In this document: positions 7,532 to 59,356 of the stretch, in pieces
How the letters are laid out: every line of letters starts with the position of its first letter
Position numbering within the stretch: position 1 is the stretch's first letter
The notes under the pieces: generated by a model
Seen by the model: the letters and a program-made list of their open reading frames with translations, nothing else
What the model was told of the DNA's origin: nothing
Database searches by the model: none
Virus record (IMG/VR): IMGVR_UViG_3300027754_005796
Coordinates: 1-64,000 of that record
Reading direction: 5' to 3' (one strand)
DNA from: a virus
DNA: 64,000 nt
Translations under genes and position numbers: made by a program

Positions 7532-8860
7532 ATGGATACATCAAAACTTGCTGAAACTTTGTCTCAAGTAGATCAACGCCATGTCTACATGCGTTGTAAC
7601 CCTGAAATCTTTGACTTTACAGACAAAGACTCCGTCTATGAGTTGCAGTTTTTTACTCATGGTGGTATGAATTTTACTATAAATTTAACAGACGATAATA
7701 TTCCTATAGTTTTGAGTATGCTTCGTATATCTCTCTTTCATAAAGATTGCAAGGTTTTGGTTTGGAATTGGAAATCTTTTGCTAGTTTTGTTTTATTCAA
7801 AACTAAAAAAGTCTACACAGTTGATGCTGCAATCATAGACTTGAAAATCATCGAATCTTTTTCAGGCTTCAAGCTCAAAGCTCCTAACGGCTTGGTAGAT
7901 GCCCTCAATAGGCTCAAAAATCTCATTACAGGCGGTTTCTGGAAGGATGTTGAGTCAACCTACAAAGTTGTTCATTTCCCCCTAATGACGACAGTTTTGC
8001 CCCATCTGGAGACAACTGGCGTTTTGAGCATCGAGAGTAGCAACAAGGTTTATGGTTATTACGAGATTGATGGTCAAGAGAATGGTCGTCTCAAGTGTCA
8101 TGGTGCTTTCAAACACAGCTTTGTGCCTCATGCTTTGAAGGCTGACACAAAAGCTGATCTGAAGCCAAGGTCGCAAGATGAGTTGTTTATGAACTTTGAT
8201 TTTCGAGGCATGGAGGTTTTTGTTCTAGCGCATTTAAGCGGCGATGAGCTTCTGAAAGAAATGTGTAAAGAAGTTGATATTTATTCATCTTTGTATAGGG
8301 AGTTGATGAAAAAGGAAATTTCTACAAAAGATGACAGGGAATTGGCAAAAAAATTATTTTTGCCGGTTATATATGGACAGTCTGCCTACTCGCTTTCTCA
8401 GCGATGTGGGTTTGCAATAGATATTGCAGAAGCTGTAGTCGAGCGAATTTGTTCTTCGTTCAAGGTCGCAGTTTCTTATGTCGCCGGATTTGAAAATCAT
8501 GTCAAACAACATGGTTACGCTAAAGACCTCTTTGGCAAAAGGCGCAGCAATTTTGAATCTGGCAAAGAGTATCTTGCACGCAATTTTGCCGTGCAATCAC
8601 CTGCTGCCACGATTTGTTCTGAAAAACTGATAAACCTTTATTTTGCTTTGAAAGACAAGGCTAATATCGCTTATACTGTTCATGATGGTTATGTGGTGTA
8701 TGCCACAAAAGACAATTGGAAACAGATTTATCAGATCGGCATGGATATTTTGACATCCGAATCTGATATGTGCGCCGGATTACGGCTTAAAGTGGCTTGC
8801 CGTGCCGGTCGAAATCTCAATGACCTTAAGCCCCTTGGTCGCAAAGGAGAAAAATGTTAG
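7532..8860 (+). CDS. Truncated family A DNA polymerase (palm and fingers, no thumb, degenerate exonuclease-like N-terminus)
   Basis: Motif A FDFRGMEVFVLAHLSGD, motif B RELAKKLFLPVIYG, RNFAVQSPAA, motif C VHDG; LETTGV and NGRL only about 20 aa apart. Confidence 0.85.
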   Translation: MDTSKLAETLSQVDQRHVYMRCNPEIFDFTDKDSVYELQFFTHGGMNFTINLTDDNIPIVLSMLRISLFHKDCKVLVWNWKSFASFVLFKTKKVYTVDAAIIDLKIIESFSGFKLKAPNGLVDALNRLKNLITGGFWKDVESTYKVVHFPLMTTVLPHLETTGVLSIESSNKVYGYYEIDGQENGRLKCHGAFKHSFVPHALKADTKADLKPRSQDELFMNFDFRGMEVFVLAHLSGDELLKEMCKEVDIYSSLYRELMKKEISTKDDRELAKKLFLPVIYGQSAYSLSQRCGFAIDIAEAVVERICSSFKVAVSYVAGFENHVKQHGYAKDLFGKRRSNFESGKEYLARNFAVQSPAATICSEKLINLYFALKDKANIAYTVHDGYVVYATKDNWKQIYQIGMDILTSESDMCAGLRLKVACRAGRNLNDLKPLGRKGEKC

Positions 8861-40332: not shown

Positions 40333-41544
40333 ATGTGCCCTCGCCGTATAGAAGAGGATCATAAAGATTTTCGTGATGTCGTTTCTGGACGCATCCGCAA
40401 AGCTTTAAAGAAGTTTATTAAAAGCGGACAGATCGTAAGAAATAGGGGCAAAAACGGGAAGATATCAATCAGTATTCCCAAGATTGATATTCCGCACATT
40501 GTCTACGGTGACAGCGGTGAGGGAGCAGGTCGTGGCCCCGGTAAGGAAGGCGATGTAATTGGCAAAGACCCCAAAGGTGGCAAGGGTAATGGTGCAGGTC
40601 AGGGAGAATCTGAAGGTATAAATATCAACCTTGATCTTGAAGATGTTTTGAAATTCATGCAGGACGAACTGCAACTTCCCAACCTCAAAAAGAAACCAAA
40701 TGAAATCTACGATGAAGTGAAAATCAAATACAATAAGATTTCACTTATCGGTCCAGAATCTCTTCGTCACAATAGACGCACCTTGATGCAAACCATGAAG
40801 CGTCAAGCAGCAGAGGGTACTTTAAATAATCTCAAGGTTGTTCCCGGCTTGAAAGACCCTGTACGAGTCTTGCAGCCTATTAATGAGGACAAGCGTTATC
40901 GACAGTTCAGCGAAGTAAAACTGCCATCAAGCAATGCCTTAGTGGTTTTTGCTCGTGACGGCTCAGGTTCAATGGACGAAACCAAGTGCGAAATTGTCAG
41001 CGATATGACTTGGTGGATCGATACTTGGATCAGAAGATTTTATGACCGTGTTGATAGGCTTTATGTCTGGCACGATAGTACGGCTATGGAAGTAGATGAA
41101 GATAAGTTTTACAAATATAGGTATGGCGGTGGCACTACTTGTTCGTCGGCCCTAAAATTCATCACAAAGCAATTTGAGAACAGATACCCGCCTGACAAGT
41201 GGAATATTTATGTGTTTTATTTCACCGATGGGGAAAATTGGGGTGATGACAACGATATTTTCATTAATGCCTTGGCTGAAGAATTTAAACCAAATATCGT
41301 TAATTTTACAGGCATAACTCAAATTCTTGCAGGAACTTATAACGATTCTGTCAAGCATCATGTTGATGATGCCATTAAGAATGGAAAACTTGACAAGGAG
41401 TATGTTCGCACCGTGGCTATTGGAGGCGGGAGCGGAGCAACCCCTTGGTCTATGCCTTCATTGTCTGAGCAAAATAGGAATGAACAAATAATTGATGCAA
41501 TTCAGGTGCTTCTAGGAAATCCAAATAAAGTTTCTCGTGATTGA
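40333..41544 (+). CDS. yeaH: YeaH/YhbH (DUF444) vWA-domain protein
   Basis: DHKDFRDVV, Gly-rich GPGKEGDVIG segment, MIDAS DGSGS, GGTTCSSA, YPPDKWNIY, TDGEN. Confidence 0.9.
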   Translation: MCPRRIEEDHKDFRDVVSGRIRKALKKFIKSGQIVRNRGKNGKISISIPKIDIPHIVYGDSGEGAGRGPGKEGDVIGKDPKGGKGNGAGQGESEGININLDLEDVLKFMQDELQLPNLKKKPNEIYDEVKIKYNKISLIGPESLRHNRRTLMQTMKRQAAEGTLNNLKVVPGLKDPVRVLQPINEDKRYRQFSEVKLPSSNALVVFARDGSGSMDETKCEIVSDMTWWIDTWIRRFYDRVDRLYVWHDSTAMEVDEDKFYKYRYGGGTTCSSALKFITKQFENRYPPDKWNIYVFYFTDGENWGDDNDIFINALAEEFKPNIVNFTGITQILAGTYNDSVKHHVDDAIKNGKLDKEYVRTVAIGGGSGATPWSMPSLSEQNRNEQIIDAIQVLLGNPNKVSRD

Positions 41545-41555
41545 GAGGATCAGAC

Positions 41556-44500
41556 ATGTCCAGTAAGTTTTTTCACGGCTCCAGCGTTCTTCTTGGTGAC
41601 AACACAGTTCCCGGTGTGGGGCTTTCCAAGGAATTAAAAGAATTCATTCCCAAGATTCTCCACGCTTGTCGTGAATGGGGCTTGGATTTTCATCCCACGG
41701 TTGTTCAAATGTTGACTTACGATGAGATCAGCGAAATAGCTGCATATGGCGGTTTTCCCGTTCGTTTTCCACATTGGTCTTTCGGCATGGAATACGAAGA
41801 GCTCCAGCGTGGTTACGAATTCGGAATGCACAAAATATATGAAATGGTTATTAATTGCTTAATTTCTTCTGTAAATTTAAGCAGCACAAGGGGTTGCATT
41901 AAAGTTTCCGATGTTGAGGTTGGGGATGTTTTATTCAGCAAGAATGGACCAAGGAAGGTAGTAGCGATTAAAAAGCAACAAAAAAGCAAGGTTTGCAAAA
42001 TCAACGCAATTGGTTATGCACAAGAAACAATTTGTACGCCAAATCATAAGTGGCAAGTCTTAAGAGGGAGCAAGCCCGAATGGGTAGAGGCAGCTAATTT
42101 AGTTGAAGGCGATCTTTTGATTGCAGGTGGTAAGTATGAGAATTTCTTAGGGCTTGCCTCTCGTATTTATTGGTCTAAGGATAAGGTTTTTGAATCGACT
42201 CTGCCGAATGTTAGGTGGAAGTTGGAGGAAATTGATCCTCCAAACCACATGACCGTTGAGCTTGCTGAACTTTTGGGAATTTGCACCGGGGATGGAAGTT
42301 CAGGGGTAAGCGGTTCCGAAAATACAATTGCAATTGCTGTTGGTAAGAAAAACAAGCAATACCAATTGCACATCAAGAATTTGTTTTTTAATGTATTTCA
42401 AAAAGAATCTGCCATATACGAAAAGACGGGCGGCGACAGCGTTACGCTTTGCTCAAAATATGCTGTGGACTATTTCAATGTTATTGGTTTGAAAAAGAAT
42501 GTTACTTTTGAATCAAAAAGGGTTCCGTCTTCAATTTGGCAGTCATCTAACGAGTATAAAGCATTCTTTTTAAGAGGTGTTTTTGACACAGACGGTCATG
42601 TTAAAACTAGTTTGCAAATGTCCAGTAAGAGTTTTGATTTAGTTAAAGATGTACAGCTTTTGCTCCTTGAAATTGGCATTTTCAGTAAAGTGGTCCATGT
42701 TGAAAATAAACATAACAATATTTATGTTTTGTACATTCATGGAAGAAGCAATCAGATTGCTTTTGCAAAATATGTCAATTTTTCAATTCAATATAAGAAG
42801 GAAGCTTTAGAAAATTTGATCAATTCAGGTTATGCAATTGCTCATGGCAATAAGATGCCTGAATTGCAAAAAGAGATACTTAAAAGGTTAGAAGAACTTC
42901 CAAATCCAAGAAAAATCCTGGCTTGGATTAAGAGATGGAAATGGATTTCTAAAAAAAACGATTTGGGCTCAAACTCTTTGTGGAGTTTTGTTTCTAGGCT
43001 TAAAAGTGCGGGTTTTTTAGGCTTTGAAGATTTGCTCCAAATACTAGAAAGTCCTATGTACATAGTCGAAAGTGTTTCCGACTGTGGTGAGGACGAAACC
43101 ATAGACATTGCTCTGGACCACGACGAGCATGATTTCTTGGCGAATGGTTTAGTGTCCCACAACACTAATCCTTGCTATATCTACAATTTAGCTTCTAATA
43201 CTTTGGCCGATCACTTGACTGTTGTTGCACATGCGACTGGCCACAATGATTTTTTCAAAAACAATATTCATTTTTCGGCAACTGATACAAACATGTTGAA
43301 TAAGATGGCTAATCATGGCACTCGTATTCGCAAATATATGGCTCGTTGGGGCAAGGAGAGAGTTGTTGAGTTTCTCGATCATGTAATGCGCCTTGAAACT
43401 TTGATTGATGGTGCTGAGGCTTGGGACGATAGGATTATTAAAGAAAAAAACATTCGTGACGAAAGGCAATATCGCACGCCGAAGAGACTTGTTGTTGATA
43501 AGCAGCGAATGTACATGGAACCTTTCTTAAATACCTCTGAATATCGCAAGAAACAAAACGAAAAGTGCTACGATGCAGACATTTCGGAAGAAATCGGTTT
43601 CTTTAAGCAGCCAACCAAAAATATTCTGGGTTTTTTGAGAGACAATGCCCCTCTTAAACCTTGGCAGGCTGATATTGTGTCGATGCTTTATGAAGAGGCT
43701 ATGTATTTTTATCCTCAGAGGCAAACTAAGGTATTGAACGAAGGATGGGCCTGCGGGGAACGCAATACTTTGGTTGCTACAGATAGGGGTATTTTGACTT
43801 TAGGTGAAATCGTAGATAAGCGATTGCCTGTCACGGTTTATGACGGAGACAACGAGAGGAAGGTCGCTAATTGGTTTACTTTTGAAAACCGTGATGTTTA
43901 TCAGATAGAGACACGGCGTGGATACTTATTTAAGGGATCAAACAATCATCGGGTTATGGGAGATCAAGATTGGGTTCGTCTTGATAACATGAAGATTGGT
44001 CAATCGGTAAAAATTTCTTGTTCCAACCTTTGGACAGAAGAGCTTCAGGCAATTGAATATCAGCCGATCCAAAGGCGAATTGAATTGAAAGAAATTGCTC
44101 AAAAAGCTTCTGTTTCTGTAAGTCAGGTTGCCTACAGGAAGTATCAGTATGAGGGAGAAGAGAAGGCCGACCAATTGGGTCTGCTTTTGAAGGATTACGA
44201 TAATCAAACGGCCACAACCATGAGGAACAAGAGGAAATCTATCGTTTTTCCTTCTTTGATGGACGAGGATTTTGCTTCTTTCATCGGCTACATGATTGGC
44301 GATGGACATATAAGCAAAAAAAAGAGGACTTTGGGTCTTACTACAGGCGATAAAGAGCAATGTGATAATTATGCCTTTTTGTTGGACAAACTTTTTGGTC
44401 TGAGGTGCAAGATTCGCTGGGATAATTCGTCGAAGAATGGAAGATATAGAATTAGCACTAGCTCTAAAGAGCTTGAAGATTTGTTGGTCTATTTGGGATT

Positions 44501-45662
44501 GAAGACTGGCATATGTGCTCGAATCAAGGAAATTCCAGAAATTATTTTGAAGTCACCGAAGAGCGTGGTCGCTGCTTTTATTCGTTCTTATTTTGATTGT
44601 GATGGTTATGCTGGAAATGCTGGTGTGATTCTATCGACATCAAGTGAATCAATGTCAATACAAATTCAGAATGTTTTGCTTAATTTTTCTATCATTTCAA
44701 CAAGACGAAAGCAGCAAGATTCTTGCTGGCATATTCGTATCACCGGCAGCGAAGCAAAAAAATATCATGAACAAATTGGCTTCGGGCTGAACAGGAAGCA
44801 AGACAAGCTCGAAAAATATATTTCTGATCACAAATGGTTTATTGAACCGAAGTTGGAAGATAAAATTGTCTCTGTTGAAAAAATCGGCACCGATGTTGTT
44901 TACGACATCACGGTCGAAACCACTCATCGATATGCTGCCGCAGGGTTTGTAAACCACAACAGCACCGTAGACTCTGTAATCATGGCTGAAATGGGCTTAA
45001 TTTCTCTTGGCCAAAAGAGCGATGATGTAGGCATCGTTGAATATGCAGAGCACAAAATGGGTGTTCTTGGTGGCAAATATAGCACAAATCCTTATAAGCT
45101 TGGTTATTATTTGTTGTCTGATATTCGTGAGCGATGGGACAAGGGCAGGTTTGGGCAGGAGTGGGAGGAGTGCAACGATATGCACAAGAAAGAAACTTGG
45201 GACATCCCGACCAATCAAGGTAAAGATAAAATTTTTGAGGTGAGAAAGTATTATGACGATCTCACTTTCATTCACGAGTTTTTTACAGAGGATTTTTGCC
45301 GTAAGCAGGAATATTTTTACTGGAAACATTATCCCAACGGTGAATATCGTCTTGAGAGTCGTGATTACAAAAAAATCAAACAAATACTCATGCGAAAGCA
45401 TATCAATGGTGGTCTGCCAGATATTAAATTGACTGAGCCGAACTACTCAGGACGAGGAATTATGATGCTCCAACACGAGTATGATGGCAGGCCTTTGTAC
45501 GACCCTTACATTGGTGATGTTCTGTCTTCAATTCGATACATTTGGAACAATGATGTTGTTTTAGCCACGCAGGACAAGACTGGCAAGGAAAAGTTTTATT
45601 TTGCTTCCGGCAACAATACTGTTCAGTTATTGGATCGTCAACAGTTGAAAAAAGTTGTCTAA
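41556..45662 (+). CDS. spoVR: SpoVR/YcgB-family protein with two inteins (about 529 aa after splicing)
   Basis: GGFPVRFPHWSFG, IYEMVIN|TNPCY, AHATGHNDFFKNN, YFYPQRQTKVLNEGWA|S, NPYKLG; GAGAGGA SD favours ATG 41556. Confidence 0.92.
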   Translation: MSSKFFHGSSVLLGDNTVPGVGLSKELKEFIPKILHACREWGLDFHPTVVQMLTYDEISEIAAYGGFPVRFPHWSFGMEYEELQRGYEFGMHKIYEMVINCLISSVNLSSTRGCIKVSDVEVGDVLFSKNGPRKVVAIKKQQKSKVCKINAIGYAQETICTPNHKWQVLRGSKPEWVEAANLVEGDLLIAGGKYENFLGLASRIYWSKDKVFESTLPNVRWKLEEIDPPNHMTVELAELLGICTGDGSSGVSGSENTIAIAVGKKNKQYQLHIKNLFFNVFQKESAIYEKTGGDSVTLCSKYAVDYFNVIGLKKNVTFESKRVPSSIWQSSNEYKAFFLRGVFDTDGHVKTSLQMSSKSFDLVKDVQLLLLEIGIFSKVVHVENKHNNIYVLYIHGRSNQIAFAKYVNFSIQYKKEALENLINSGYAIAHGNKMPELQKEILKRLEELPNPRKILAWIKRWKWISKKNDLGSNSLWSFVSRLKSAGFLGFEDLLQILESPMYIVESVSDCGEDETIDIALDHDEHDFLANGLVSHNTNPCYIYNLASNTLADHLTVVAHATGHNDFFKNNIHFSATDTNMLNKMANHGTRIRKYMARWGKERVVEFLDHVMRLETLIDGAEAWDDRIIKEKNIRDERQYRTPKRLVVDKQRMYMEPFLNTSEYRKKQNEKCYDADISEEIGFFKQPTKNILGFLRDNAPLKPWQADIVSMLYEEAMYFYPQRQTKVLNEGWACGERNTLVATDRGILTLGEIVDKRLPVTVYDGDNERKVANWFTFENRDVYQIETRRGYLFKGSNNHRVMGDQDWVRLDNMKIGQSVKISCSNLWTEELQAIEYQPIQRRIELKEIAQKASVSVSQVAYRKYQYEGEEKADQLGLLLKDYDNQTATTMRNKRKSIVFPSLMDEDFASFIGYMIGDGHISKKKRTLGLTTGDKEQCDNYAFLLDKLFGLRCKIRWDNSSKNGRYRISTSSKELEDLLVYLGLKTGICARIKEIPEIILKSPKSVVAAFIRSYFDCDGYAGNAGVILSTSSESMSIQIQNVLLNFSIISTRRKQQDSCWHIRITGSEAKKYHEQIGFGLNRKQDKLEKYISDHKWFIEPKLEDKIVSVEKIGTDVVYDITVETTHRYAAAGFVNHNSTVDSVIMAEMGLISLGQKSDDVGIVEYAEHKMGVLGGKYSTNPYKLGYYLLSDIRERWDKGRFGQEWEECNDMHKKETWDIPTNQGKDKIFEVRKYYDDLTFIHEFFTEDFCRKQEYFYWKHYPNGEYRLESRDYKKIKQILMRKHINGGLPDIKLTEPNYSGRGIMMLQHEYDGRPLYDPYIGDVLSSIRYIWNNDVVLATQDKTGKEKFYFASGNNTVQLLDRQQLKKVV
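41856..43163 (+). mobile_element. Intein 1 in SpoVR with LAGLIDADG endonuclease (436 aa)
   Basis: Starts CLISS, block B TPNH, LLGICTGDG and FLRGVFDTDG, ends LVSHN before Thr. Confidence 0.9.
43752..44960 (+). mobile_element. Intein 2 in SpoVR with LAGLIDADG endonuclease (403 aa)
   Basis: Starts CGERN, block B SNNH, FIGYMIGDG and FIRSYFDCDG, ends FVNHN before Ser. Confidence 0.9.
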
Positions 45663-47536: not shown

Positions 47537-47664
47537 TTGTTGATCAATCCATTAAGGTTTTTGCGTAGAACGGCAGAAATCGGCTTGATTAAATCAAAAC
47601 CAAATGCTTAAATCGCCCATAGGTAGATTTAAGTAGATTTTTAGGAACGGCTGAAATAAACATC

Positions 47665-49121
47665 ATGAGCAAAGAAAGATCATGTGTGGAGATAGTAGGT
47701 TATGAGCACCTACATCTCCACACAGATTCCTTGCCCCCGGCAGAATATCTGTCGGGGGCGCAAAAAACTTTAGTACGCTTGACGGATATGGGACTGTAGA
47801 GGAGTATGCCTTAAGGTCCATTTCAAATAATCAGAATTTTCTCACGGTTACAGATCATGGAATGATGGGTGTCATTCCACGGCAAATTCGAGCCTGCGAC
47901 AAGATTTGTGACAAACACGGCAAAGATAAACTATCTCCAATATTTGGATGTGAATTGTATGTAAATCGTCTTCAGCCAGCTACTGAAGGCTTGGAAGACA
48001 TGCGTAAGTTTATGGCCGATCTCAATGAGGAAGAGGCATTTGAACTCAAGGCTAGTCCTCATCTTTTGGCAATTGCATACAACGAAACGGGTTATAAAAA
48101 TCTGGTCAGACTTTCCAGTTGGGGTTGGACTAAGGGCTTTTATCGCCGCCCCAGAGTCAACTATGAACAGTTGCAAAAGTATAAAGAGGGTTTGATATTT
48201 ACAAGTTGTTGTTACAACAGCGAAATTGGTAGAGCCTATGAGGCTGGTGGCGAAGAAGCCGCCTGTGCCATGATCGAGCGATATGTTGGCATGTTTGGCA
48301 AAGAAGACTTTTATCTTGAAATCATGCTCTTGGATTTCAAGAAACAAAAACCCTATGACGCTTTCATAGTCAAAGCCAAAGAAAAATATGGTTTGAAATT
48401 AATCATTACGAACGATGTGCATTATTGTAATAAGCAGGACAGTCATTTTCAAAGATTGATGCTCATGGTTCAGACAAACAGGAGTATCAAGGATATTCAG
48501 CGTGCTTTGGCCGAAGACAATATGCGAGACTTTTTTGAATTGCAGGATTCTAATTTGTGGTTTAAGTCCGAAGAGGAATTAAATGAAAAGTGGATCGTTG
48601 AATACAGCGATGTGATTCCTTATGAGTTATTTTGCGAAGCAAAGCGCACTACTGTTGAAGTTTGCCGTAAGGCTAAAGGTGTAGAACTTGACCGGAGTCT
48701 TAAACTTCCGCAGATACCTAATGCTGATGATATTTTGAAAGATGAAGTTCTGAGGGGTGCGAAGTTCCGTGGAATTCCACACACGAGAGAATATTTAAAT
48801 CGAATCAAGGAAGAATACAGCTTGATCATTCGTAAGGGCTTTGCAAGTTACTTTTTGATACAAAAGATGATGACAGACGAGGCACGCAGAGTTTGCGTTG
48901 AGCTTCTTGGGTGGGGAGATGGTTCGCAAGCTTTGGGTCCCGGTCGTGGGAGTGCTGTGGGAGCTTTGACTTGTTACTGCTTGGGTATTACGAATGTTGA
49001 TCCCGTGAGAGAAGGATTGTTGTTCAGTAGATTTCTTTCTGAGGCCCGTGGTGGCAGGTCTTTGGTCCTTGAGTTCAAAAATATTGATCCATTGCCGCCA
49101 CATGAGGCTTTTAAAGATTAA
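47665..49121 (+). CDS. dnaE: DNA polymerase III alpha N-terminal half (PHP plus start of palm), interrupted by a 41-nt insert
   Basis: Frame from ATG 47665 gives YEHLHLHTD; a different frame resumes FSTLDGYG at 47769 and continues TDHG, GCE, TNDVHY, GPGRGSAVG, LLFSRFL to TAA 49121. Confidence 0.85.
47728..47768 (+). other. 41-nt hairpin insertion (candidate recoding/bypass element or micro-intron)
   Basis: TCCTTGCCCCCGGCAGAATATCTGTCGGGGGCGCAAAAAAC; 12-bp stem 47733-47744/47748-47759; removal restores HTD-FSTLDG. Confidence 0.75.
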
Positions 49122-50265: not shown

Positions 50266-50615
50266 GGGGTTGTACTGGTATCGATTCAGACTCATAATCC
50301 CTAAGTGGCACGCAGAGGTTGGCCGAACGGACTCTTAAAAATTCGGCTGTCGATATAAACGACGAAACTGTTCACGCTTTGGCTGCTTAATTTAAGCAAC
50401 CACGAACCTAGGGGGCGATGTGGGTAGCGCCCGAAGGTTCGACGCTAAATCCTGCTGGTTTTGTGGCTCCAACGACCACTTAACGAGACAAAGTTGGTAA
50501 GGCCGAAGCAAGTTTTGTTCTTGGTACTTGCAAGGTTTGATTAAACAAAGAAACAAGCGTGTAGAGGCTTAGAGAGAGTGGTTTGAAGACAGGGGTTCAA
50601 CTCCCCTCAACTCCA
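50266..50615 (+). ncRNA. ssrA: tmRNA
   Basis: 5' GGGGTTGtactggtatcga; 3' T arm GACAGGGGTTCAACTCCCCT and CAACTCC-A; G3-U acceptor pair; tag frame GAC GAA ACT GTT CAC GCT TTG GCT GCT TAA (50361-50390) = (A)DETVHALAA. Confidence 0.95.
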
Positions 50616-50617
50616 CT

Positions 50618-50650
50618 AAAAAATCCGTTGTTAATACAGCGGATTTTTTT
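50618..50650 (+). terminator. tmRNA terminator
   Basis: AAAAAATCCGTTG...CAGCGGATTTTTTT. Confidence 0.75.
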
Positions 50651-54085: not shown

Positions 54086-56833
54086 ATGAGTCGTGAAGAA
54101 TTTATACATGTTTTGGACAAGGCATTCAAGAATAGCGGACACGCCAATGATGTCCGTTATCAGAAAAGGTATAAGTGGGAATTTGATGAGATTTTAGGGA
54201 AAGAAAAATACCAGTATTTTTTTGATCTGTATAAAACAAAAACTCGCTATCCGCAGAATCAAAACAATCTTTTGGTCTGCAAGTTATTGGGAATTGTTCC
54301 CGATTTTGATATAGATAAAGAACCCGCCTATGTTTTTACAGGCGATTTGCCAGATATCGATATCGACTACTTGCCTGCTGTGCGTGATTATTTAAAAAAC
54401 ACTTGGGCAAGTAAGACATTTGGCGAAGAGTATGTTTGCAATATTGGGAACTACACTACTTTTGGATTAAAGTCCGCTCTGATTGACATGGCTCGTGTCC
54501 ATGATGAATCTCGTGAAGAGATAATGGCGATTACTAAAAACTTAGAGGCGAAGGATGATGAAGGTAATCCCATGACTTGGGACGCTGCCTTGCGTTTGAA
54601 TTTAGAGCTTAAGGAGTATGCTGATAAGTATCCACAGATCGCAGATGCTGCTCGTAGATTGGTGAACCGCAATCGTGGCATGGGTGTTCATGCTGCTGGG
54701 CTTATTGTTTCAAGCATTCCCCTGCATGATCTTGTGCCCTTGGTGAAAAGAAAAGATACCCCACAGGCATCGGCATGGGTGGAAGGCTTGCATGGTCAGG
54801 ACTTGCAGCCTGTAGGGTTGGTAAAGTTTGATTTACTGGTTATTTCAAACTTATTGCAGATTGCTCGGTGTTGTGAATTGGTTAAGAATCGTCGTGGCTT
54901 AAAGGGCATTTGCAATCGTCCAAACGAACCCGACTGGACAGATGTTGATCAATGGCGAAACGATCCTGAAGCACTTTCGATGGCAAATGCCGGTGATCTG
55001 AAGTGTATTTTCCAGTTTGATAGCGAGGGCATGCGAGGTCTTATCCGTTCTGGTGGTGTTGATCGATTTGAAGACTTAGTGGCCTATTCTGCGCTTTTTA
55101 GGCCGGGTTGCTTAGCGTCAGGTATGACCAAGCGTTATGTTGAACGCAAGAAGGGTCGTGAGAAATTTTCTATCCATCCTCTGATGCAGCCCATTCTTGA
55201 AAAAACTTATGGGATTATGGTCTATCAAGAACAAATCATGCAGGTATTGTATGTGGTCGGTGATATTCCTTTAAAAGACTGTGAAATTATTCGTAAAGCG
55301 ATCAGTAAGAAGAAGATTGAGGCTTTTATCAAATATAAAGAAATGTTCATTGTCAATGGACAAAGGAATCTGCAAGCTTCAGAAGAATATTTGGTTGAGC
55401 TTTTTCAGCAGGTCGAGACATTTTCAGAGTACGGGTTTAACGCTTCTCATGCAGTTGCTTACAATTACATTTCTAGCATGTTGTTGTATCTCAAAGCCCA
55501 TTATTCTCATGAGTTCTATGCTTCTATGTTGAGTTGTGAAACTCTGAGTGAAAAAATCAAGGATTACAAAATGGAGGCCAAGGTGCATGGGGTGGACATG
55601 CATCGTCTTGATATCAATAAATCTAAGGTCAATTTTGAATTGATTGGCGATATGATTTATTATGGGTTTTCAAAGGTGAAGGGAATAGGAGACAAACCAG
55701 CAGAAAAGATTGTCGCTGGGCAACCTTACAAATCGTTCGAGGACTTTTTGTATCGTTGCACAACTGACTCATCTATTTTGAAACCAATTCTTGGTTTGCG
55801 TTGTTTTCGTGATCGTGATCCAGTTGTGCTTTGGAAGTTTGCTGATCATTTCAAAGACTGCATGAAAAAGAATGACGATAAAAAAAAGCGATATGAAAAG
55901 TCGTTGGAAAAGTATGAAATGGAGTTCAAGGAGCTTGTCCCATCTGATACTAGACTTTTGAGTGATTTTTCCGGCGATCAGCCTTTTGATGCTGATGAAT
56001 GGAAAAAGTACGATGTCAACGAACTAGTGGATGTGGATCAAGAAACTGAGTGCGAGCAGTCCGAGGGAGGCGAGGCAAGGATCGTTAAGGAAGAAGTGAC
56101 AGTTGATGATACTGATGTGTTGGTTGAGCGTGAAGTCACACGCTATTTCAAGATTGTAAAAATCAAAAAGCCTAGAAATGTTTTGGTGCAATTAAAGAAG
56201 TTGTGGAAGAAGCGAAAGCTGACCATAGATCGCCGTATGAATGCGACTTTCAAGGAATTGCCTCAGTTGGTTGAGTTTAATGGTGATGAGCATCAAATTG
56301 ATGATAGTCTTTTGAAGGAATTGCGTGATCCGGTCCAATGTGAGCAGCTTTATTATGGATGGGCTTGGATACATGAATTGGAGCGCAGTCCAGACTACAA
56401 GGGGAATCTGACTTTTGATGCTCTTCGCAACAATATTGATCAAGTTGCAGGTCCTGCGGAATTACAGATTAAGAAAAGCGCATCTGTAAAGAGTCAGAAG
56501 GGAACGACATATAGGCAGATAATTGCTGAGGATGTGACTGGACAGGAGAATAAGATCAATATTTGGGCCGAGGATTGGGGGCGTTGGGCAGAAGAATTTA
56601 AAGTTGGTAACTTACTTAGAGTACGGATACAGCCTCCGTCTGGCGGGTTCAATACTTTTACTTTGGAATCGAACCAGCTAGGCAAATACCGTGGCAGCAA
56701 AAAATATCGGGACAAGGATGATGATCCAAGGGTTTTTGTCATGCAATTTGGCAAGAAAGAAGAGGAAAAATTTCTTAGCGACGAGGAGGCATTGTTACAG
56801 TTTTCGGCTTGTAAAATGAAAGAGAAACCATGA
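54086..56833 (+). CDS. dnaE: DNA polymerase III alpha C-terminal half (catalytic palm, fingers, HhH, OB fold)
   Basis: DLPDIDID, GVHAAG, LVKFDLL, IFQFDS, ALFRPG, TYGIMVYQEQ, YGFNASHAVAY, GFSKVKGIG. Confidence 0.92.
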   Translation: MSREEFIHVLDKAFKNSGHANDVRYQKRYKWEFDEILGKEKYQYFFDLYKTKTRYPQNQNNLLVCKLLGIVPDFDIDKEPAYVFTGDLPDIDIDYLPAVRDYLKNTWASKTFGEEYVCNIGNYTTFGLKSALIDMARVHDESREEIMAITKNLEAKDDEGNPMTWDAALRLNLELKEYADKYPQIADAARRLVNRNRGMGVHAAGLIVSSIPLHDLVPLVKRKDTPQASAWVEGLHGQDLQPVGLVKFDLLVISNLLQIARCCELVKNRRGLKGICNRPNEPDWTDVDQWRNDPEALSMANAGDLKCIFQFDSEGMRGLIRSGGVDRFEDLVAYSALFRPGCLASGMTKRYVERKKGREKFSIHPLMQPILEKTYGIMVYQEQIMQVLYVVGDIPLKDCEIIRKAISKKKIEAFIKYKEMFIVNGQRNLQASEEYLVELFQQVETFSEYGFNASHAVAYNYISSMLLYLKAHYSHEFYASMLSCETLSEKIKDYKMEAKVHGVDMHRLDINKSKVNFELIGDMIYYGFSKVKGIGDKPAEKIVAGQPYKSFEDFLYRCTTDSSILKPILGLRCFRDRDPVVLWKFADHFKDCMKKNDDKKKRYEKSLEKYEMEFKELVPSDTRLLSDFSGDQPFDADEWKKYDVNELVDVDQETECEQSEGGEARIVKEEVTVDDTDVLVEREVTRYFKIVKIKKPRNVLVQLKKLWKKRKLTIDRRMNATFKELPQLVEFNGDEHQIDDSLLKELRDPVQCEQLYYGWAWIHELERSPDYKGNLTFDALRNNIDQVAGPAELQIKKSASVKSQKGTTYRQIIAEDVTGQENKINIWAEDWGRWAEEFKVGNLLRVRIQPPSGGFNTFTLESNQLGKYRGSKKYRDKDDDPRVFVMQFGKKEEEKFLSDEEALLQFSACKMKEKP

Positions 56834-58801: not shown

Positions 58802-59356
58802 ATGGCCGTTGCACCTTGGAAAGCATCCGAAGAAGTTCTTAATTTGCTGCAAAAAGTAAAGCAGAAGCACCATTCTCCTAGGTTGGATGGTGCTTCTGTT
58901 GCTATTTGCTTTATTGAAGCTAAGAGTTTTATCAAAAATAAGTTAAATCTCGGAAAGTTGAGCAAATTTGCTCCTACTGCTCGTTTGTATCAAAATATCA
59001 AACATGATTTTTGTTTGTGTATTCCATTCGATCTTTGGCAAGATGTTCTTAATGAAACGCAAAGAGATGCGTTTTTGGACCTGCATCTGACTCGATTGAC
59101 TGTGGAGTATGTTCCTGAAACCGTAGAGGAAAATGGCAAGAAATTTAAAGTGACCGATGATTGGGGTAGAATCAAGTACACAGAGGAAGTGAAGTACGAC
59201 GAGGAGGGAAACCCTTTCTGGAAGATCGAGCCTTTGGATTTAGAAGTTTTTGCCAAAAATGTGAGTAGATATGGATTGTGGCAAGAGGAATTGGTTTCTT
59301 TAAGTGAAGCCATTAAAGCAAGCGAGGGTAATGATGGGGCGCTCCAAACTGATTGA
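58802..59356 (+). CDS. Phage metallopeptidase-like protein with degenerate metal motif
   Basis: HHSPRL..ASVAI, HDFCLCI..DLWQ, RDAFLDLHL (HExxH position altered), DLEVFAKNVSRYGLW. Confidence 0.55.
   Translation: MAVAPWKASEEVLNLLQKVKQKHHSPRLDGASVAICFIEAKSFIKNKLNLGKLSKFAPTARLYQNIKHDFCLCIPFDLWQDVLNETQRDAFLDLHLTRLTVEYVPETVEENGKKFKVTDDWGRIKYTEEVKYDEEGNPFWKIEPLDLEVFAKNVSRYGLWQEELVSLSEAIKASEGNDGALQTD

Follow-up and report, generated by a model that had tools for sequence, protein, structure and literature searches.

The interrupted dnaE-N gene

The stretch considered here, called the window throughout, comprises the first 64 kb (64,000 nucleotides, nt) of the IMG/VR virus record IMGVR_UViG_3300027754_005796, which spans 172.8 kb and is estimated to be about 40% complete; by the size and completeness of this record, its source is a huge phage. 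On the plus strand lies dnaE-N, which encodes the PHP domain of a replicative polymerase together with the beginning of its Pol III alpha domain, and whose PHP motif I is split by a gap of 41 nt that cannot be translated in frame, while the flanks of the gap rejoin to the canonical motif seen in intact relatives (Table 1).

Read straight on, the open reading frame (ORF) that starts at the first segment (47665..47799) yields 44 amino acids (aa), namely MSKERSCVEIVGYEHLHLHTD followed by SLPPAEYLSGAQKTLVRLTDMGL, and terminates at the TAG at 47797. The motif resumes in a different frame, which from 47769 reads FSTLDGYGTVEEY...TDHG and remains open through to 49121; this second segment matches PHP (2.3e-32) and the first 98 positions of PF07733 in Pfam, and in an alignment with Taq Pol III alpha its later PHP metal ligands (His, Cys, Asp-x-His) fall on the corresponding ligands of that enzyme. 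Deletion of 47728-47768 rebuilds HLHLHTD-FSTLDG, the uninterrupted form of about 30 distinct relatives. An earlier note on this DNA, made from its letters, had described the frame that ends at TAG 47797, the resumption of the motif in another frame from 47769 and the repair of the motif by removal of 41 nt, and all three descriptions are borne out by the ORFs, the domain match and the intact relatives. The start region follows a pattern, M(S/H)KERS(C/S)VEIVG, that the window shares with one of the relatives described below (L021).

Table 1. Coordinates of the dnaE features in the window.
Feature	Position	Strand	Remarks
dnaE-N coding segment 1	47665..47727	+	21 codons, MSKERSCVEIVGYEHLHLHTD; carries the HxH metal ligands of PHP motif I
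Proposed take-off codon GAT (Asp)	47725..47727	+	last codon before the gap; putative take-off role
41-nt coding gap	47728..47768	+	spacer TCCTT, hairpin, tail GCAAAAAAC
G+C-rich hairpin	47733..47759	+	12-bp stem with one G.U, loop AUA
GGGGG run in the 3' arm of the hairpin	47754..47758	+	possible Shine-Dalgarno-like element; putative function, by analogy with T4 gene 60
Proposed landing codon AAC	47766..47768	+	first NAY after the hairpin; matches tRNA-Asp at positions 2 and 3; putative landing
dnaE-N coding segment 2	47769..49121	+	450 aa, FSTLDG..., rest of PHP and first part of the Pol III alpha domain
TAG ending the frame of segment 1 on straight reading	47797..47799	+	44-aa product; from the ORF reading
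dnaE-C, separate gene for the remaining polymerase	54086..56833	+	PF07733 positions 100-259, fingers, HhH

The gap is dominated by its hairpin, the arms of which (47733-47744 and 47748-47759) pair over 12 bp, or 13 bp if U47732.G47760 is included, with the stem beginning 5 nt 3' of the GAT codon that closes the first segment. It folds at -25.3 kcal/mol (z = -5.3), and none of 200 shuffled sequences is equally stable. The GGGGG run forms part of the stem and ends 7 nt before AAC 47766-68, so that both the stem and the placing of the G run stand as the earlier note had reported them; pairing and a possible Shine-Dalgarno-like action of the run would fall on the same nucleotides. The straight-on frame meets CCC CCG within the stem, a Pro-Pro pair in the phage's rarest proline codons, which might contribute to a stall.

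A scan for further copies, suggested in the earlier note, was run over the 172.8-kb record and returned none; the hairpin is single-copy, and it is the sole strong G+C-rich hairpin found in the record that interrupts a reading frame (eleven others are listed, and the positions of seven of these relative to ORFs were looked at). Those at 88055, 140208, 154327 and 158076 are intergenic and terminator-like, and those at 58860, 89008 and 106578 lie within long open frames, which they leave unbroken.

Homologous hairpin gaps in related phages

Relatives were gathered by scans of viral and metagenome contigs, which gave about 130 loci (designated L and a number) with DnaE-N 48-89% identical to that of the window; a DNA-pattern scan added a clade in which DnaE is only 61% identical. 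The same element, GCCCCCGG...CCGGGGGC preceded by a U-rich spacer of 5 nt and followed by an A-rich tail, is present in seven further groups of loci, and homologous gaps recur across independent metagenome assemblies, which speaks against an artefact. They measure 41 nt in the window, 40 nt in L021, 44 nt in L053, 40 nt in L139 and L140, and 42 nt in the L133 group (L133, L136, L138, L141 and L142), where the gap is in frame but carries a TAA in its loop; with lengths of 40, 41, 42 and 44 nt, gaps of the window's type thus span all three frame relations. The comparison of orthologues that the earlier note had recommended therefore finds the insert well beyond the window. An unrelated hairpin of 40 nt occupies the same junction in L022, L075 and L076.

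The borders of these gaps follow a common pattern. In all eight aligned hairpin-gap loci (seven distinct gap sequences) the gap starts directly after a GAY codon, and its final triplet is either AAC (window, L021, L133 group) or GAA (L053, L139, L140, L022, L075), both of which fit tRNA-Asp at two positions out of three. In L021, L053, L133 and L139 the proposed landing codon is preceded by a G run at a distance of 5-7 nt; in L022 a GGAG adjoins this codon.

Across six members of the family, 98.5% of the alignment cells in the stem are paired, three base pairs show compensatory changes, and none of 500 shuffles matches the covariation score; the fold z values run from -3.9 to -5.9 across all hairpin forms, and the outer stem and tail are identical between genes whose DnaE proteins are just 61% identical. 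By these three marks (fold z, compensatory changes, and identity of the outer stem and tail at that protein distance) the hairpin is maintained by selection. Translation of the gap would give a peptide that shows no conservation (SLPPAEYLSGAQK vs LLPPVNFYRGRKK).

The closest relative is particularly informative as to how the two frames could be joined. L053 is the sister of the window on the DnaE-N tree (100% support, 88-89% aa identity); a TAA in the loop stops its incoming frame and a TAG follows the 3' arm in its outgoing frame. With stops in both frames, no single frameshift can join them. This bears on one of the options raised in the earlier note, in which ribosomal frameshifting or transcriptional slippage on the A6 run at 47762-47767 would give a DnaE-N with a loop of 14 aa, HTD-SLPPAEYLSGAQK-NFSTLDG. 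A -1 shift of tRNA-Lys on the A run of the window would indeed join the frames, with no stop before it, and in L021 a +1 shift on this run could restore the frame. The L133 group, however, has the same A6 run with an in-frame gap of 42 nt and a TAA in the loop, where a shift would break the frame; L139, L140, L053 and L022 have no A6 run at all; the inserted peptide varies while the stem covaries; and the hairpin lies upstream of the run, on the wrong side for a frameshift stimulator. Gaps of 40, 41 and 42 nt on one and the same run, further gaps that lack the run, and the closed frames of L053 contradict slippage, which we consider highly improbable.

Two sequence links around the hairpin were tried and rejected: pairing of the exon end ACAGAT with ATCTGT of the 3' arm, which is not kept in L021, and a link between a hairpin arm and the leader through CGGC(A/T)GAA, an 8-mer with 12 occurrences in the genome, where about 10.5 are expected. 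The leader of dnaE also contains a 13-nt direct repeat, GAACGGC(A/T)GAAAT, at 47568-47580 and 47645-47657, which is found nowhere else in the genome and is not conserved in L021 or L053.

Other interruptions of PHP motif I

About 30 distinct genes carry the motif in uninterrupted form, EHLHLH(T/S)D(F/Y)SxLDG; other relatives are broken within the same 21-nt stretch in five ways, with gap sizes from 5 to 48 nt across the dnaE relatives. One is the hairpin gap of 40-44 nt after the Asp codon, the class of the window, described above. Another consists of 15 distinct gaps of 5-9 nt, in each of which the third His codon of the motif is followed at once by TAG or TGA. In 10 of the 15, the final triplet of the gap is the first NAY in any frame, NAY being near-cognate for tRNA-His (null mean 1.7; 0 of 20,000 simulations reach 10). 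At a Leu codon, hops of six nt occur with matched codons around a stop (CTT TAA CTA, CTC TAA CTT, CTT TAA CTT, CTT TAG CTA), while L057 and L080 have hairpin gaps of 46-48 nt after CTC and a stop; the fold of L057 places both the take-off and the stop codon in paired positions within the stem, and the sequence of L080 permits the same (CTCTAG with CTAGAG). Finally, group I introns (RF00028, 85-102 bits) are inserted exactly at GAT|TTT in L120, which is the junction of the window, and 8 nt downstream in L030, L048 and L122. The gaps of 5-9 nt point to the ribosome, because a stop follows the last decoded codon and the landing triplets are matched or near-cognate. At other sites in dnaE-N, L047 and L050 (= L125) have inteins that end in ...HNC or ...SNC.

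The introns lend some weight to an explanation at the level of RNA, also among the options of the earlier note, in which the hairpin would be a mini-intron, cut out by a nuclease of host or phage and resealed by a ligase to leave a continuous mRNA. A structure-specific nuclease would likewise be served by a conserved, covarying hairpin with exact junctions, excision would leave the length of the gap equally free in any frame, and the intron of L120 sits at the very same junction. A gap of 41 nt is, on the other hand, far too short for a self-splicing core; no Rfam family matches it in the window, L021, L022, L053, L057 or L080, and for RF00028 in particular the search that returns no match in the window detects the introns of L030, L048, L120 and L122. 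No RtcB ligase was found in the 172.8 kb of the record, there is no bulge-helix-bulge fold, and the flanks of the gap are unpaired in the folds. Moreover, the neighbouring gaps of 5-9 nt could not be spliced by known routes and bear marks specific to translation, and RNA cutting does not predict end triplets (AAC, GAA) that are near-cognate to GAY. With no positive support from ribozyme, Rfam family or ligase, excision is unlikely.

An alternative genetic code was rejected as well: the genome is consistent with code 11, and a sense reading of TAG brings only a small increase in coverage and would not repair the gap. Beyond the window, ARAGORN predicts a tRNA of the amber-suppressor type (anticodon CTA) at G000:C1:103191-103264 (minus strand) and a tRNA-Arg(TCT) at 103362-103445; if the CTA tRNA were expressed late, the TAG-led hop sites of relatives could be switched off.

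Selection on the interrupted genes

The codons on either side of the gaps remain under constraint. Over the 12 codons before the gaps, the ratio of nonsynonymous to synonymous polymorphism (pN/pS) is 0.14, with a pS of 0.67 (27 distinct interrupted loci), as compared to a pN/pS of 0.22 in intact genes; over the 28 codons LDG..DHG after the gaps it is 0.27 in interrupted genes and in their intact relatives alike. The earlier note had held that the intact remainder of the gene argues against simple decay, and these ratios agree with it on both flanks. In 30 of 59 interrupted loci the downstream frame reaches its first canonical start only after DHG; the window has no ATG, GTG or TTG in this frame before 47862, already past three ligand motifs. 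An internal start therefore cannot explain the conserved codons in those 30 loci or in the window, since the first start lies past them. The later PHP ligands are kept, and the HxH peptide should therefore be needed.

These values bear on the possibility that the insert disables the N-terminus, either in a recent pseudogene or in a DnaE-N that does without the HxH peptide (through non-canonical re-initiation, or with a separate peptide of 21-44 aa) and whose PHP site is dispensable. Some gapped genes are nearly identical to intact ones, which indicates that some insertions are recent; the phage has another polymerase gene; and the DnaE of Escherichia coli is functional despite a degenerate PHP site. 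Yet at least 35 distinct interrupted genes are otherwise intact, in clades that diverge down to 50-60% identity, and the codons before their gaps are as strongly constrained as in intact genes. Random decay would neither put a stop right after His in 15 gap sequences nor preserve a covarying hairpin. Decay, or a protein without its N-terminus, is unlikely, and we assign this explanation a low probability. What the sequences show is a genuine gap, structured, conserved and covarying, that is found in each of the three frame relations and bordered on both sides by codons under purifying selection.

Mobile-element context

Genes of an HNH family (phrog_559 HNH, phrog_681, phrog_1035 Endo VII), recognised by PHROGs and not by Pfam, lie directly upstream of dnaE in 9 of 36 interrupted rows vs 0 of 28 intact rows (Fisher p 0.004; 5-7 to 0 in phylogenetically independent pairs, median p 0.03). 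They accompany His gaps, a Leu hop, the L048 intron and the hairpin type of the window (L133, L139, L140); the proteins of L133 and L048 are 47% identical. In the window, L021 and L053, the gap stands without an HNH-family gene nearby.

On the DnaE-N tree, interrupted genes are intermixed with intact ones, the state changing 18 times over 79 rows (16-20 on an earlier tree of 73 rows), and several near-identical pairs are separated by the cassette alone (L104/L044, L056/L057, L081/L080). L044 corresponds to L104 with the addition of an HNH gene of 1 kb and a 6-nt hop, the first 60-80 nt of dnaE having diverged. Downstream of the two gaps in L057, this locus and L056 share 99.4% identity; upstream, about 2 kb of DNA differ, and there L057 encodes beside dnaE a protein of 568 aa and of no known kind (L057:556-2262); L080 and L081 differ in a similar manner.

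Homing elements have colonised a second gene of the window as well, the SpoVR-like one at 41541-45662 (1373 aa), which contains two inteins that bear LAGLIDADG domains. The polymerase itself is split into two genes 5 kb apart, with the break at PF07733 position 98/100; between dnaE-N and dnaE-C lie a minus-strand ORF, a transfer-messenger RNA (tmRNA), a GT2/methyltransferase gene and a carbamoyltransferase gene. The tmRNA (50266-50618, Rfam 129.7 bits, tag peptide DETVHALAA) overlaps the listed start (50583) of the downstream GT2/methyltransferase ORF, and a tmRNA is also found 3' of dnaE-N in L022, L030 and L050. The split is not universal, since the dnaE-N frame continues beyond 840 aa in L034, L088, L120, L122 and L124.

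A probable translational bypass

Among the three options of the earlier note, which had made no choice between them, the comparative data thus speak for ribosomal bypass, refute slippage and leave excision unlikely. Bypass is favoured because the gaps occur in all frame relations, because other gaps are led by stops or flanked by matched Leu codons, because the flanks are under purifying selection, and because interruptions are linked to HNH genes. For the hairpin class, translation is to be preferred over RNA processing by parsimony and by the near-cognate last triplet. Programmed translational bypass probably lets an insert that would confer immunity to an endonuclease sit in an essential motif, as in T4 gene 60 with MobA; the skipping by the ribosome, the exact take-off and landing codons and the target of the nuclease are what we infer from the sequences.

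In the window, peptidyl-tRNA-Asp would leave GAU 47725-27 after 21 codons, the ribosome would pass the folded 12-bp hairpin without decoding it, and the tRNA would re-pair at the near-cognate AAC 47766-68, possibly aided by the G run 7 nt upstream; decoding would restart at UUU 47769, and the product would be a DnaE-N with an unbroken HLHLHTDFSTLDG metal-binding motif. As to its origin, the gap may have arrived as part of a homing-endonuclease cassette. In related phages, a nuclease of the HNH/Endo VII type is encoded immediately 5' of dnaE, and its presumed target is the conserved DNA of PHP motif I; any insert at this place, whether a hairpin gap, a group I intron or a short hop site led by a stop, would shield the carrier's own gene. 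In the phage of the window, whose record lacks the nuclease gene, the gap would be left as an orphan.

Several observations weigh against a bypass of this kind. The take-off and landing codons, GAU and AAC, match at two of three positions; the incoming frame of the window is open through the whole gap, to 47797; and the codon after take-off is UCC, an ordinary sense codon used 9.1 times per 1000 in the phage, which is not rare and thus rules out a hungry-codon trigger. In the window nothing other than the hairpin itself singles out the take-off site, and the nascent chain at the proposed take-off has only 21 residues. A strict rule by which landing takes the first near-cognate triplet was rejected, as it is broken in 5 of the 15 His-type gaps and in L022, where an earlier GAG precedes the proposed landing codon GAA. 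There is no HNH gene adjoining the gap of the window or anywhere in the 172.8 kb of the record, and L056 has a different endonuclease-like protein (L056:1738-2859; phrog_559 8e-54, DUF4379 + DUF559) beside an intact dnaE, which makes the HNH link a tendency rather than a rule. Lastly, a PolA-family gene at 7532-8860 (PF00476, 4.9e-32) gives the phage two polymerase types; dnaE need not be its only polymerase, and an argument built on its being so was dropped. A second copy of dnaE may also lie outside the record, given the estimated completeness of the latter.

For a broader proposition the balance is about even: that phage dnaE harbours a large natural family of gaps skipped by the ribosome, including the first natural stop-hops; that the bypass of the window is driven by a hairpin with neither a stop nor a hungry codon, and re-pairs near-cognately after 21 residues; and that such gaps have evolved repeatedly as immunity inserts against a homing endonuclease targeting PHP motif I, interchangeable with group I introns at the same junction. 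If true, this would add a second, unrelated and far more varied family of bypass beyond gene 60, and with it a natural mutational series for take-off, sliding and landing (gaps of 5-48 nt that may or may not have a stop or a hairpin and that fall into three frames and several places within 21 nt). The form of the window would be the hardest case in this series, because the hairpin alone marks its take-off site. An untranslatable gap and a self-splicing intron would then be interchangeable answers to the same pressure from homing endonucleases. In practical terms, dnaE genes with such gaps are shortened by gene callers, and the phage polymerases are consequently mis-annotated.

Comparison with known systems

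To our knowledge, T4 gene 60 and its homologues, the mitochondria of Magnusiomyces and synthetic constructs are the only cases in which programmed translational bypassing has been demonstrated; a literature search found no publication describing such gaps in dnaE. The combination of an A6 run and a stable hairpin in a replication gene resembles -1 frameshifting of the dnaX type, but here the hairpin precedes the run, contrary to what is expected of that class, and homologous gaps do not permit a shift on it; the gap of the window is not a member of this class.

The byp elements in the mitochondria of Magnusiomyces capitatus (Atkins et al. 2016, PMC5009743) are likewise short, G+C-rich hairpin inserts that break the frame in an A+T-richer genome, and their take-off and landing codons are often imperfectly matched as well. 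They are skipped in translation, at 81 sites, and depend on an unused A-site codon and on relaxed mitochondrial decoding (PMC5009743), whereas the hairpin of the window is single-copy in a phage and is entered at a normal sense codon. Stop-hops are synthetic, made in E. coli constructs (Weiss et al. 1987, reviewed in PMC5009743), and by the 2016 review no natural occurrences were known; in the relatives, sites such as CTT TAA CTA and CTT TAG CTA have the same arrangement, with Leu codons flanking a stop and 9 nt yielding one residue, whereas the gap of the window is of the long hairpin kind.

Collaborative homing, in which an intron interrupts the target of a nuclease encoded nearby, is exemplified by F-CphI with psbA in cyanophage S-PM2 (PMC6083498) and by mobE with nrdB (PMC2790892). 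L048 has the corresponding arrangement: within the conserved motif of its dnaE lies a group I intron that encodes no endonuclease, and an HNH/Endo VII-type gene immediately precedes this dnaE; in the window and most relatives, in contrast, the interrupting element is an untranslatable gap.

The closest parallel is T4 gene 60 with MobA (Manning and Atkins, bioRxiv 10.1101/2022.08.31.505936; Edgell et al. 2010, PMC2988022), where the bypass insert protects against MobA and some genomes retain the bypass after loss of the nuclease (bioRxiv 10.1101/2022.08.31.505936). The two systems share no sequence homology and concern different enzymes (dnaE here, a topoisomerase there), and bypass in dnaE is predicted from sequence. 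The window has no stop after the take-off codon, pairs GAU with AAC at two of three positions where T4 has GGA and GGA, and places its hairpin 5 nt after take-off, at a nascent chain of just 21 aa; the dnaE family as a whole covers 5-48 nt at several positions in a 21-nt stretch, as against one fixed gap of 50 nt. In L057 and L080 the likeness extends to the stop that follows the take-off codon, and the L057 fold places both codons in the stem. Common to both systems are a gap of tens of nt with a stable stem-loop, placed in a metal-binding motif that is conserved in an essential replication enzyme of the phage, an adjoining free-standing HNH gene linked to the gap (in dnaE, among some of the relatives), and the persistence of the gap in some genomes that have no such nuclease gene.

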